From the NCBI GenBank assembly GCA_944388705.1, contig CALXJU010000002.1, positions 3,041 through 67,040 of the forward strand: 64,000 nt of DNA, given 5' to 3'. The position numbers were made by a program, and so were the translations under genes. Shown here piece after piece: positions 8,788-42,481 of the stretch. The notes under the pieces are model-generated. The model searched no databases, was not told where the DNA came from, and saw nothing but the letters and a program-made list of their open reading frames with translations. Origin of the DNA: an uncultured Clostridia bacterium (GTDB lineage: Bacteria > Bacillota > Clostridia > TANB77 > CAG-508). Position 1 is the stretch's first letter, and every line of letters begins with the position of its first letter.

Positions 8788-10356
8788 TTAATTTTTGTAC
8801 CAATTATTTATATCAATAAAAACATTATACCAGTTAGCTTCTATATTTCCTTTTAATGTTAAATTACTCATCACTGCATAATAACTACTATATAGACCAA
8901 TAAATGGTTGTTCTTCATTAAATATTTGTCTTATTCTTGTGTATTTTTCTTTTAACAAATTTTCATCTGTTATATTTTTTACTTCGTTTAATATAGTGTT
9001 TAATTCTTCATTATTATAATTTGATGATACAAAATATGTTTCTAGATTAGGACTTGTTGATTCTGTTGTTCCTGTTAGTATAATGTCATAGTTTTTGTTT
9101 TGTAAGTAATTCTGATATTGAGTGTCACTTGCTTTTACTATTGATACTCTTATTCCAATTTCTTCTAAATTTGTTTTGAGCATTTCTGCAACTGTTACTC
9201 TTGTCTGATTTGTAGCTTGGACTACTAATCTTAGATTTATTGTTAATGTTCTATTATTTTCTACTTTTTGCCATCTATTATTTTTTAATGTCCAACCACC
9301 TTCTTCTAACAGTTTTTTAGCTTCTCCTGGATTATAAGTCTTATCCCCTTCTTGTCCTCTTAGCCAGTTTCCATAGTCTAACGGATAATCTATTGTTTTA
9401 TATTTATTATTAAATACACTAGATATTATATTTTCTCTATTTATTCCATATGATATTGCTCTTCTTACTTCTTTATGTGATAAAACTTGATTTTGTGTAT
9501 TTATTGCTAAATAATCATATTCTCTTCCTGCTACTTCTTTTTTGTTATACCCAATTGTTCCTATGTAATTTTCTATATTTATATTTGTTGTTGTGATTAA
9601 GTCGATTTTTCCTAATTTAAAAGCATTATATAATTCTCCTAAATTCGCATATTTCCCTATGTTTATTGTTTCTAATGTTAGTTCTTTTTCATAATAATTT
9701 TCATTTTTACTTAATGTTATTCCTTCTGCATCATTTCTTGTGATTTTATATTTTCCACTTCCTACTGGCATATTATTTTTTTCTGTTGTAGTAAATTCTT
9801 GCCCTTCATAATATTTTTTACTCATTATTGGAAATATTAAATTATATTCAAAAAATGGTATTTCATGGTCTAATGTTATTTGTAATGATGTTTCATCTAT
9901 CTTATCTGCTCTTATTACATATTGAACATTATATGCATATATTGATGGTGTTTTTTTCAAAATATCTATTGTATATATTACATCTTCTACTGTTAATGGT
10001 TGTCCATCTGACCATTTGATGTCATCTCTTATTTTTATTAAATATGTGGTCTGACTCGTTTTTGCCCAATCTTTTGCTATACAATTTTTAATTTTATATT
10101 CTGAGTCTATTTCTAATAATGGTTCAAATATTATTTTTGATATTTCTTGTACATGTTTATTGTTACTCAATATCGGGTTTATTGTATCAAATTCTGCTAT
10201 TCCTAATGTTATTTCTTTTATTGTTTCTTCTTCTGCTTCTTCTACTGGCTCTTCTTCTGGAATTTCTGTTTTTTGCTCATTTAATTTATATATTGCAAAT
10301 CCCATTATAGCTATTACAAATATGAAAAATATATATTTTATAAAATTGCTTTTCAA
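8788..10356 (-). CDS. ABC transporter substrate-binding protein, family 5 (peptide/nickel, OppA-like), membrane-anchored
   Basis: 522 aa with an N-terminal TM/signal anchor. SBP_bac_5-like segments include IKWSDGQPLTVEDVIYTIDILKK. Confidence 0.8.
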   Translation of the reverse strand: MKSNFIKYIFFIFVIAIMGFAIYKLNEQKTEIPEEEPVEEAEEETIKEITLGIAEFDTINPILSNNKHVQEISKIIFEPLLEIDSEYKIKNCIAKDWAKTSQTTYLIKIRDDIKWSDGQPLTVEDVIYTIDILKKTPSIYAYNVQYVIRADKIDETSLQITLDHEIPFFEYNLIFPIMSKKYYEGQEFTTTEKNNMPVGSGKYKITRNDAEGITLSKNENYYEKELTLETINIGKYANLGELYNAFKLGKIDLITTTNINIENYIGTIGYNKKEVAGREYDYLAINTQNQVLSHKEVRRAISYGINRENIISSVFNNKYKTIDYPLDYGNWLRGQEGDKTYNPGEAKKLLEEGGWTLKNNRWQKVENNRTLTINLRLVVQATNQTRVTVAEMLKTNLEEIGIRVSIVKASDTQYQNYLQNKNYDIILTGTTESTSPNLETYFVSSNYNNEELNTILNEVKNITDENLLKEKYTRIRQIFNEEQPFIGLYSSYYAVMSNLTLKGNIEANWYNVFIDINNWYKN

Positions 10357-10604
10357 ATTATCACCCTCTCGTGTTGTTATAATATATTATTATTCAGTTT
10401 TTTTCAAGTGTTTTGGGATATTTTTATCAACCTCCTTTTTTACAGTTTTCGGTTTTTTTGGATTTTTTAGATTTTTTTGCTTTCCAAAGTTGTAATGCAA
10501 TTGAATTTTTGAATGAACAATATTATGTTACCATATTTTTCTTGTTTTATCAATAGCATTTTTAAATTATTTTTATATTAAATAATATTTTTATATTCTA
10601 TACA

Positions 10605-11013
10605 GGCTGATGTGGAGAGCCCCTTGCACATATGTATTAAATAAATGGAGAATTTTGTGCATCTAAACTTAACGTTAGAAAATCTTATATATTCAGATGA
10701 GGAATGTTCATGGGCAAGCTTATAAATATGTGTATTTTTCATAAACTGCCTCGACTACCCTACATAACGTTAACAAATTCTAAAACTAAAGTCACAACAA
10801 TACCCAAAAATGGGGACCTTTATGACTTTAGTTTAAGAATTTGTAACACTATTCCGGTCGTATTCGTTGTTTAATCAAAATAAACATATTTATAAGCTTG
10901 AGCCTGAATGAAAGCGGCTCATCTGAATATATTAGATTTTATACGGGAAGTTTGGCTTGTCCAAAATTTGGAATGCTTTAATACATATGTGCAAGGGGCT
11001 CTCCACATCAGCC
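10605..11013. repeat. 410-bp foldback: long imperfect inverted repeat with four near-perfect helices and an apical mini-hairpin
   Basis: Paired blocks are 10605-10641/10977-11013 (37 bp perfect), about 10679-10701/10918-10940 (22 of 23), 10716-10731/10884-10899 (16 bp perfect) and about 10769-10794/10823-10847 (1 bulge plus 1 mismatch). The apex is CCCAAAAATGGG, centred at 10809. Internal loops have matched sizes (37/36, 14/18 and 37/36 nt). Confidence 0.9.
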
Positions 11014-11054
11014 AGTCTAGATTATAAAAACATTAGTTGTTATCTGTTCCTCTT

Positions 11055-11086
11055 TATTAAACAAAAGAGAGCATTTTATGCTCTCT
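11055..11086 (-). terminator. Rho-independent terminator downstream of spoVS
   Basis: Minus strand: AGAGAGCA - 5-nt loop - TGCTCTCT, followed by TTTGTTTAAT. Confidence 0.6.
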
Positions 11087-11091
11087 CTGAT

Positions 11092-34551: not shown

Positions 34552-35136
34552 ATGGATAAAAATTTAATTACTAAAAAGAAAGCTTTTTTATTACTTGCAT
34601 GTATTTGGCTTATTATTAGTCTTTCTGTAGTTCAAACTACATATGCTAAATATGTGACTAATTTAGATGCAAATGCAAATATTGCAATTTCATATTGGAA
34701 TATCTTAGTTAATAATCAAAATATCGCTGAAAACCCTGATATTAGTGCTACTATGACTGCTGTTTTTCCTGGTAATGAGTTTATGAAAAATGATGTTATT
34801 GTTCCAGGTGCAGTTGGTTATTTTGATTTAAATATAGATTCTTCAAATGTAACAGTTCCTTTTACTATAACTGTTACCACTTCAGTAAATGAAAATAGTT
34901 CTCTAACTATGGATTTCGTTGTTTCAGGTTATTCAATTAATAATGGAGAAATTATAGAACTTATAGATACTAATTCATTTTCTTATGATATTTCTTTGGA
35001 TGCTGATTCAACTATTATAAGAATTTACACAACCTGGTTAGATGATGGACTTGATTCAGTAGAAGATACAGCTCTAGGTATAGCTGGTGGTACTGCAATT
35101 TTAGATGTAACGTTAAACTTTGAACAAATTATATAG
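34552..35136 (+). CDS. SipW-cognate-signal secreted protein, TasA-like superfamily, B family
   Basis: Signal ending VVQTTYAKYVTN; VPGAVGYFDLNIDSSN (compare TasA/camelysin APGD...F.v.N); IRIYTTWLDDGLD; C-terminus LNFEQII. It is a paralog of 42482-43111 and 41225-41785. Confidence 0.65.
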   Translation: MDKNLITKKKAFLLLACIWLIISLSVVQTTYAKYVTNLDANANIAISYWNILVNNQNIAENPDISATMTAVFPGNEFMKNDVIVPGAVGYFDLNIDSSNVTVPFTITVTTSVNENSSLTMDFVVSGYSINNGEIIELIDTNSFSYDISLDADSTIIRIYTTWLDDGLDSVEDTALGIAGGTAILDVTLNFEQII

Positions 35137-35154
35137 GGACGGTTCTGTTTTGAA

Positions 35155-35336
35155 GGGGACGGTCCTTTTTGGTGCATTTATTATTTGTATTTAAATACGA
35201 AAAGATTATATATTACTATTCCATAGCCAAAACATATTCTGGGTCTTCGTCGGGGGTCTTGGCTTTATTTCATAGTAATATATAATCTTTTCGTTATAGT
35301 TATAAAGTAAAAAATGCATCAAAAAGGACCGTCCCC
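35155..35336. repeat. Palindromic intergenic element, copy 2, with an extra G/C-rich outer stem (182-bp hairpin) between convergent genes
   Basis: Outer stem GGGGACGGTCCTTTTTGGTGCATT (from 35155) / AATGCATCAAAAAGGACCGTCCCC (ending 35336). Inner arms GAAAAGATTATATATTACTATT / AGTAATATATAATCTTTTC. Core GGTCTTCGTCGGGGGTCTTGG at 35242-35262. Confidence 0.85.
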
Positions 35337-35338
35337 TT

Positions 35339-35986
35339 TTAAGCATTCTTTTGCTCAGCTTTTAATTTTATTTTTATTTCAATTGCTGATTTTCCTGTAT
35401 TTTGTTGATAATATTTATAACTATCTACTCCATATTGAGTATCAAGTTCATCATCACCACTTTCATATGCCCAGGTAAATTTAACATTTATTGTAGCTTC
35501 TCCACCATTCATTGCTAAATCTGTTGAACTTACATTTACAGTTATTTCAAAAGGAAAATCTTCTAATAGCATTTGAGCTAATTCTTCAGCTGTCATTTTT
35601 ATTTCAGTACCTGTTAAATTTTCTTTTTCTTCTGTTGATAATTCTTCTTCCACAATATATATATCGTCAAATATTCTGGCAGTAGTTATCACATAACTTA
35701 AAGTTGCATCTTTTTCTCCCGAATTATTAACAGTAACTGTTTTTTCGACCTCATCCATTCCAGGATATGCATGGTCTATTTCCAATACAAAATTATTTTC
35801 TATTACTTGATCTCCAACTTCAAAATTTACACTCCATGCATCAACATGTACTGTCATATTCGTAGATACTGTTGTTACATATAGAAACCAGGCGTATGTA
35901 TTAAAAATTAAAGTTAAAGAAAGTAAGAATAAAGTCTTTAATTTCAATCTTCTACGTTTTCTTCTTTCTTCTCTTTTTCTTTTCAT
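35339..35986 (-). CDS. SipW-cognate-signal secreted protein, TasA-like superfamily (last gene of the 8-gene operon)
   Basis: MKRKREERRKRRRLKLKTLF + TM helix + FNTYAWFLY; YPGMDEVEKTVTVNNSGEKDA (TasA-like PGx...N.G motif); FTWAYESGDDELD. Confidence 0.65.
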   Translation of the reverse strand: MKRKREERRKRRRLKLKTLFLLSLTLIFNTYAWFLYVTTVSTNMTVHVDAWSVNFEVGDQVIENNFVLEIDHAYPGMDEVEKTVTVNNSGEKDATLSYVITTARIFDDIYIVEEELSTEEKENLTGTEIKMTAEELAQMLLEDFPFEITVNVSSTDLAMNGGEATINVKFTWAYESGDDELDTQYGVDSYKYYQQNTGKSAIEIKIKLKAEQKNA

Positions 35987-42305: not shown

Positions 42306-42321
42306 TTTTAATCCTTTCTTT

Positions 42322-42423
42322 GCATAATATTTATATATATAACTATTTCATAGCAAAACCATATCTGGGGCTTTCGTCGGGGAGCTTTGCTTTATTACAT
42401 AGTTATATATATAAATATTATGC
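42322..42423. repeat. Palindromic intergenic element, copy 3 (same orientation as copy 2)
   Basis: Arms GCATAATATTTATATATATAACTATTTCATAG / ACATAGTTATATATATAAATATTATGC. The core GGGGCTTTCGTCGGGGAGCTTTGC lies at 42367-42390. Confidence 0.85.
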
Positions 42424-42481
42424 AAAAATTATGTAAAAATTAATTAAAACTAATTAAAACTAATTTCAATTATCTATTAAA

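Follow-up and report, generated by a model that had tools for sequence, protein, structure and literature searches.

The window, by which we mean the whole 64,000-nt (64-kb) stretch of DNA analysed here, comes from an uncultured Clostridia bacterium. Its minus strand carries, in this order, ymdB, spoVS, the element under study, an SBP_bac_5 (OppA-like) gene and recA. The element is a long foldback in the spacer between spoVS and the SBP gene (Table 1). As the preliminary description had placed it, the intrinsic terminator of spoVS stands on one side, and the start of the SBP gene, at 10356, lies 249 nt away on the other. The neighbouring genes are SpoIID, peptidase M23, YmdB, SpoVS, SBP_bac_5, RecA, RuvB, QueH and RecJ-like genes; within a few kb to the left or right, none was called as a recombinase or transposase. 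Two promoter-like sites seem to serve the SBP gene. The distal one (Table 1) has TTGCAA as its first hexamer in the related loci L043/L044. The proximal one, TTGAAA-17-TATTAT, lies at 10379-10407, in a stretch that by eye looks conserved in the spacers of several relatives, and an A-rich leader of roughly 120 nt lies between the two.

Table 1 Features of the foldback element and of the adjoining host sequence in the window
Feature	Coordinates	Strand	Basis
Full foldback element, ~470 bp; true ends uncertain	10575-11043		Inverted repeat 10575-10675 with 10943-11043; arm alignment
Left outermost arm, degenerate counterpart of the family terminus GTTACTATAGAATAGTTTTGAG...	10575-10604		22/30 complementary to 11014-11043
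Left half of the 37-bp helix (helix 1): GC-rich subterminal stem GGCTGATGTGGAGAGCCCCT and conserved TGCACATATGTATTAAA	10605-10641		Two inverted occurrences in the window
Asymmetric core, ~335 nt: helices 2-4 and conserved non-complementary blocks	10642-10976	+	Similarity to L001; profile
Helix 2	10679-10701 with 10918-10940		22/23 paired
Helix 3	10715-10738 with 10877-10900		23/24 paired
Apex block, best-conserved part of the family; helix 4 and mini-hairpin	10760-10859	+	Between-genome identity
Helix 4	10773-10794 with 10823-10844		21/22 paired
Apex mini-hairpin CCC-AAAAAT-GGG	10803-10814		
Right half of the perfect 37-bp helix	10977-11013		Second inverted occurrence in the window
Right outermost arm, likewise a degenerate terminus	11014-11043		Arm alignment
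spoVS intrinsic terminator; host sequence just upstream of the insertion point, outside the element	11064-11088	-	Conserved in L001, L036 and the empty site L043
SBP promoter-like site TTGATA-17-TAACAT (TG-extended); host sequence downstream of the element	10525-10553	-	Consensus scan; L001, L036, L043/L044

The preliminary description had reported a foldback of four helices separated by internal loops, and an inverted-repeat search with arm alignment located the blocks as claimed. Helix 1 pairs perfectly over 37 bp, and its 36-nt end motif occurs twice within the 64-kb window, in inverted orientation and both times at the element. Each strand folds into a single long hairpin of about -195 kcal/mol (-193 and -197 kcal/mol for the two strands). 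Shuffled sequences fold at -85 ± 6 kcal/mol, which gives a z-score of about -18 (-18 and -19). The mini-hairpin reported at the centre was confirmed. The size-matched layout of the internal loops also held, but the loops are partly complementary, with short helices such as AATTTTG and AAACTT inside them. The foldback itself is real, but an extent of 10605-11013 is too short, as weak pairing continues for ~30 nt past both ends, to ~10575 and ~11043 (22 of 30 positions complementary).

Syntenic loci were obtained by exact-protein look-up with SpoVS, and dispersed copies were found by scanning species-representative genomes with a 22-nt core motif (loci carry L numbers below). The same look-up returned no record with YmdB, and with RecA only contigs of the same species. 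The search for further copies proposed earlier was productive: homologous copies of 470-495 bp occur at unrelated intergenic sites of related metagenome-assembled Clostridia genomes, at least two per genome. The uncultured Clostridia bacterium MAG CALXXZ01 holds two (L001/L017 and L020, the latter between an aspartokinase-like and a phosphofructokinase-like gene). MAG CAUWKC01 has two contigs (L018 and L019) that each end inside a copy and differ in their neighbour genes, and MAG CANPDB01 has one copy (L021). Within the 64-kb window only one copy is present. It matches the family profile over 10607-11045 with 427 bits, and an nhmmer search with the profile over the window and every fetched locus recovered no diverged copies beyond the known ones. 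All dispersed copies are intergenic: a stop codon or terminator precedes them and the next gene follows. A local inverted duplication unique to the spoVS-SBP locus was rejected on the basis of this dispersal.

The well-preserved copies share termini of the form GTTACTATA(G/T)RAT...ATYMTATAGTAAC, and a terminal inverted repeat (TIR) GTTACTATA(G/T)RATRGTTTT is common to L001, L020, L018, L019 and L036. Target-site duplications (TSDs) abut both termini in three of these: TTTGTATT (8 bp) in L001, TTTGTGTT (8 bp) in L036 and AAAATAATA (9 bp) in L020. The relative represented by L043/L044, whose SBP is 74% identical, lacks the element: a lone TTTGTGTT comes between the spoVS terminator and the promoter. 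TIRs, TSDs, dispersed copies and an empty site are the behavior of a non-autonomous foldback transposon (MITE). The preliminary description had left three readings side by side: a large structured RNA, a long dsRNA/RNase III substrate and a foldback mobile element. The last is the one that the other copies bear out, and the two RNA readings are improbable beside it; TIRs with TSDs in other copies, which that description had itself named as evidence against an RNA, are present in L001, L036 and L020. We conclude that the feature is most probably one copy of a non-coding, MITE-like family of foldback transposable elements, ~470-495 bp long, in uncultured low-GC Clostridia. Mobilisation of the copies would have been in trans, through a DDE-type transposase recognising the GTTACTATA... 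ends and cutting with a stagger of 8-9 bp.

In the window copy the ends are less distinct. Its ends, including the left outermost arm, align with the termini of L001 and L020 at only ~55-60% identity, and no intact family terminus was found in the window at up to three mismatches. Because of this low likeness and the absence of an intact terminus, we regard the window copy as one whose ends have decayed and whose recognisable termini appear to be lost; it is probably immobile. The only TSD candidate is a 7-bp direct repeat, TATTAAA, at 10576-10582 and 11055-11061. If it is a TSD, it would possibly set the ends of the window element at 10583 and 11054.

The copies encode no conserved ORF, and frame-breaking indels separate close copies; a small protein encoded in the core was rejected on this ground. 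An autonomous element with matching ends was not found in the window or in the loci, which span a few kb each (up to ~14 kb), and no gene is enclosed there by an inverted pair of GTTACTATA ends. BLASTN of the element against phage and plasmid collections gave no match. Scans of viral contigs with the GC-rich stem, the core motif and the terminus returned nothing, or single chance matches without an inverted partner. The ten contigs recovered from a JGI metagenome scan with a 20-nt core motif were all chance matches of 20-32 nt. A role of the GC-rich stems as guides or spacers against phages was rejected, as no credible match was found. Literature searches on Clostridial foldback MITEs returned no description of this family.

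A spoVS-SBP spacer of 110-200 nt, with just a terminator and a promoter, is found in most species and in the more distant relatives (L003-L009). The element inserted in the AT-rich spacer, with the spoVS terminator directly before it and the promoters of the SBP gene itself beyond it. Its presence here is probably near-neutral and would at most add a hairpin barrier to spoVS read-through. In other species (L002:4265-4614 and L010:4265-6277) the spacer contains an unrelated palindrome of ~170 bp (GGAGCAATATATGCTTTAATTTTATGTT...AACATAAAATTAAAGCATATATTG), joined in L010 by an IS with a 414-aa HTH_38 ORF, ends GTCAACTGTAAAAGTAAATTCTATT and a duplicated ATATTAGAACAAG. Judging from these other occupants, the stretch between spoVS and the SBP gene is an insertion hot spot. 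The same few nucleotides after the terminator appear to have been hit repeatedly; elsewhere, the L020 insertion lies 9 nt after a terminator-like hairpin. The L010 IS was also considered as the autonomous partner of the family and rejected, as its ends differ.

The locus also provides a comparison between sister lineages. The SBP encoded in L001 is 89% identical to that of the window, and its 743-nt spacer holds a homologous foldback. The inner 369 nt of this foldback are ~90.5% identical to window positions 10625-10993 and are inverted relative to the flanking genes. The family profile scores the window at 427 bits forward and 133 bits in reverse, which calls the orientation without ambiguity: the core of the window copy lies on the plus strand, opposite to the direction of spoVS-to-SBP transcription. 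All contigs of the same species have the window-type orientation (the window, L011/L032, L012/L033, L014 and L034, with four independent samples), and all contigs of the L001 lineage have the other (L001, L037 and L038; three samples). With one orientation in every contig of each lineage, the core orientation is therefore fixed within each lineage, with the proviso that consensus assemblies would hide a minority orientation.

The opposite orientations in two sister lineages could have arisen by recombination between the arms or by an independent hit on the same hot spot. L001 and L036 share one insertion point, and both copies of their TSDs differ by A versus G, the empty site having the G form. 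The window copy has junctions displaced by a few nucleotides and outer arms of another subtype. The SBP identities form a near-trichotomy (89-92%). For these reasons, independent hits on the hot spot behind the terminator have the same likelihood as a single old insertion that later inverted.

Two loci carry shortened elements. L036, whose SBP is 91% identical to that of the window, has at the L001 insertion site only 33-bp outer stems and 9 nt, an 84-bp hairpin; its 9-nt loop (CCATTCCCA) is similar to the L001 interior at the inner right end of the latter (CCATCCCAG). In L037, 74 nt of the apex are missing between ATTC direct repeats. The variants lie at L036:150-245 and L037:1194-1862. Internal deletions of this kind are typical of palindromes; those seen here are either palindrome-driven or the product of short-read assembly collapse. 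The element breaks short-read assemblies and many contigs end within it, among them L012, L014, L015, L018, L019 and L038.

We aligned the cores, as had been proposed, and found that the two arms change together. The alignment contains 134 pairs, with 95.2% of cells paired. In 33 of the 134 pairs both sides have changed, compared with 13.6 ± 2.4 in shuffles and 2-7 in slid controls, and one-side-only variation is found in 6 of 134. G-U pairs make up ~1.5% of cells, without strand bias. Each copy has 4-7 mismatches of the G-U type and 7-10 of the A-C type; the majority of mismatches are non-wobble and again show no strand bias, and an attempt to choose an RNA strand from the G-U and A-C counts was abandoned for that reason. 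Paired and unpaired core columns are each ~75% conserved in most between-genome comparisons. The outer helices have neither mismatch nor wobble, over 37 bp in the window and over even longer stretches in L001 and L020. Within any one copy the GC-rich subterminal stem pairs perfectly, yet between copies it is only ~60-70% identical.

In RNA helices under selection, G-U pairs are normally seen and evolution is slower than in loops. Because G-U pairs are scarce and unbiased here and paired columns are no slower than unpaired ones, symmetry maintained at the DNA level is favored, and the covariation pattern would fit copying from arm to arm better than selection on an RNA. Rfam 15, including the models for OLE, ROOL, GOLLD, raiA and HEARO, gave no match at the gathering score in the whole window, and at E<=10 the locus had only miRNA-like hairpin matches far below the gathering score. 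The search that the preliminary description had called for thus returned nothing meaningful, and that description had likewise matched the element to none of these five classes. Its argument that the pattern looks like selection on helices is, as far as an RNA is concerned, weakened by the near-absence of G-U pairs, the lack of strand bias, the similar divergence of paired and unpaired columns and the Rfam result.

That description had also argued that alternating perfect and divergent blocks are not what uniform decay would leave, and this part is upheld. The asymmetric, non-complementary blocks have sequence common to all copies, and because they are shared in this way they are ancestral asymmetries and not decay. 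Several single mismatches inside helices are likewise conserved in every copy, which argues against indiscriminate homogenisation of the arms and for some constraint on the core. The block pattern would have two origins. The size-matched non-complementary blocks and the few single mismatches would be ancestral asymmetries inherited by every copy, and the helices would be kept complementary by arm-to-arm recombination or gene conversion, or by quasi-palindrome template switching.

Divergence is uneven along the element. Within a genome, L001 and L020 have cores 94-100% identical and outer arms 70% identical; for L018 and L019 the values are 100% over ~290 nt of core and 92%. Between the window and L001, the core is ~90.5-92% identical and the outer arms 62%, and the host DNA differs at 66 of 372 four-fold sites (~82% identical), with spacers at 85-86%. 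Across genomes, the apex is 86-98% identical and the mid-core 65-84%. Helix 4 is invariant in 25 of 29 pairs, and the mini-hairpin shows one A-T to G-C swap among copies. L021 has the core with different outer arms, whereas L006 and L010 have the terminus with a different interior. A plain MITE burst does not predict copies that diverge so unevenly. Beyond what a simple MITE would show are also the opposed core orientations of the sister lineages, the covariation of the arms and the contrast between a variable GC-rich stem and a nearly invariant apex. The observations, made on six copies, allow a nested or modular element, or functional constraint on the core and especially on the apex.

The first of these possibilities is a composite element, in which a younger mobile or converting core, perhaps together with the GC-rich stem, repeatedly entered the middle of older, diverged small hairpin MITEs of ~80 bp with GTTACTATA ends. 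On this view the 84-bp hairpin of L036 is an outer element that was never occupied or has lost its insert, and the feature would still be a mobile element with a different anatomy. Such an arrangement would account for same-genome cores (94-100%) being more alike than the outer arms (70-92%), for the sharp fall of identity just outside ...CACATATG among the window, L001 and L020, and for outer stems standing alone at the same site in L036. It would also account for the exchanged interiors of L006 and L010 and the exchanged outer arms of L021, for the difference in core orientation between the window and L001, and for the palindromic CTAG that flanks the interior in L020 and L036. However, the likeness of the L036 loop CCATTCCCA to the L001 interior end CCATCCCAG fits an internal deletion better than an empty target. 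An insertion would also need to have left the GC-rich segment as an inverted and not a direct duplication, and between more distant genomes similarity fades gradually outward without a sharp boundary. We consider this anatomy rather unlikely.

The second possibility is that the core is a functional structured nucleic acid carried on the repeat, either a ~340-nt hairpin RNA cut by RNase III from a perfect processing stem free of sequence constraint or a protein-binding DNA hairpin, with the conserved asymmetric blocks and the apex as its functional sites. The identity of the apex across genomes (86-98%, against 65-84% for the rest), core conservation above that of four-fold sites and spacers, the retention of asymmetric blocks and single mismatches in all copies, and the strong helix covariation are all in its favor, as is a promoter-like TGGACA-16-TAAAAT on one core strand. 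That site is only partly conserved, however, and promoter-like sites in the element show no excess over shuffles; the element has no conserved promoter, and a consensus scan found no terminator inside it. The lack of a meaningful Rfam match even at E<=10 and unbiased G-U pairs at ~1.5% of cells also count against it, and outer stems without any wobble are unlike RNA helices under selection. In either orientation, copies occupy the gap between a terminator and the promoter that follows. A functional core of this kind is thus improbable in our judgment. A more specific form of it would have the near-invariant apex and the asymmetric core under purifying selection as a functional hairpin on a transposable chassis, a new rod-shaped ncRNA or a protein-bound DNA cruciform. 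The role of the GC-rich stem would be that of a clamp or a processing stalk, and the stem would be hypervariable yet complementary via a dedicated arm-copying step; we hold this to be equally doubtful.

Least probable is a programmed invertible DNA switch, in which the perfect inverted repeats act as recombination sites and flipping of the core alters SBP-recA expression. In its favor, the core of the window lineage is inverted with respect to that of the L001 lineage at this locus, perfect repeats of at least 37 bp flank it, and it lies upstream of the SBP gene, at which its promoter-like site points in the window orientation. Against it, every contig of a lineage has one orientation (four independent samples besides the window for the window type, three contigs for the L001 type), no recombinase gene was called in the neighborhood, the SBP gene retains two conserved promoters that lie downstream of the element, the copies are found at unrelated loci, and the two lineages may carry independent insertions, as their TSDs and outer arms differ.

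The foldback transposon that we favor can be compared with several known systems. The Correia, RUP and ERIC repeats are ~100-200 bp long. Like these hairpin MITEs of Neisseria, pneumococci and enterobacteria (reviewed in PMC2229807), the family is non-coding, has TIRs and TSDs, occurs in intergenic copies near terminators or promoters, and folds into a long hairpin from either strand; many such copies are the rule in those repeats. It differs from them in its size (~470-495 bp), in being a foldback over nearly its whole length and not at the ends alone, and in having an apex better conserved than the subterminal arms.

A second resemblance, by description, is to eukaryotic Foldback (FB) transposons and long-TIR foldback MITEs, which have two long inverted arms and a short centre and in which internal deletion and inversion of the centre are common. 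The arms of FB transposons are built of tandem subrepeats, whereas the arms here are of unique sequence with conserved asymmetric blocks, in a prokaryote. With large structured RNAs such as OLE, ROOL, GOLLD, raiA and HEARO the element shares its size range, intergenic position and covarying helices. Unlike them, it has no covariance-model match, forms a single rod-like hairpin without strand asymmetry, bears TIRs and TSDs and is a dispersed repeat.

The co-evolution of the arms resembles quasi-palindrome correction and arm-to-arm gene conversion, in which one arm templates the other and double-sided Watson-Crick changes arise without G-U intermediates. That quasi-palindromes are perfected by template switching is an established mechanism of mutation (PMC7202029). 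It is a mutational process and no family of elements, and its laboratory cases are short hairpins; it would here operate on stems of 37-65 bp in a 470-bp foldback.

Other foldbacks were seen in the window and in the related loci. The SBP-recA spacers of related species hold foldbacks at L006:6055-6529, L010:7860-8264, L007:5965-6324, L005:5983-6348 and L002:6202-6607. Those of L006 and L010 have the same family terminus (...TTTTCAAAACCATTATA(T/C)AGTAAC) and a different interior, and those of L007, L005 and L002 have a common apex with ATGGCACCCTTCCAT...ATGAACTCTTTCCATAAAA. Because L006 and L010 share a terminus but not an interior, and the other three share an apex, this pattern suggests that there may be a superfamily with shared ends and exchangeable interiors.

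A second foldback in the window, of ~200 bp (35147-35345), lies between convergent ORFs at 34552-35136 (plus strand) and 35339-35986 (minus strand). Its outer arms (TTTTGAAGGGGACGGTCCTTTTTGGTGCATTT, 41 nt) are GC-rich and 85% complementary, and its inner helix (CGAAAAGATTATATATTACTAT) is AT-rich. In style it is like the element studied here, and its subterminal GTTTTGAAG resembles the GTTTTGAGG of the element family; it could belong to a related repeat, or else act as a bidirectional terminator. Small AT-rich, near-perfect palindromes are present at 434-527 and 42319-42426, with arms of 27 and 34 nt that are 93-94% complementary and 40 nt apart.

These results correct the status of a striking 410-bp structured RNA candidate, which is best read as a mobile foldback repeat. 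Before similar candidates in AT-rich Clostridia are called RNAs, TIRs, TSDs and empty sites should be looked for. The family provides a clean natural example of palindrome arms that co-evolve through double-sided Watson-Crick changes with no wobble intermediates. Its interior is conserved more strongly than its subterminal arms, and the residual interest lies in the conserved apex and in a stem that is paired yet hypervariable.
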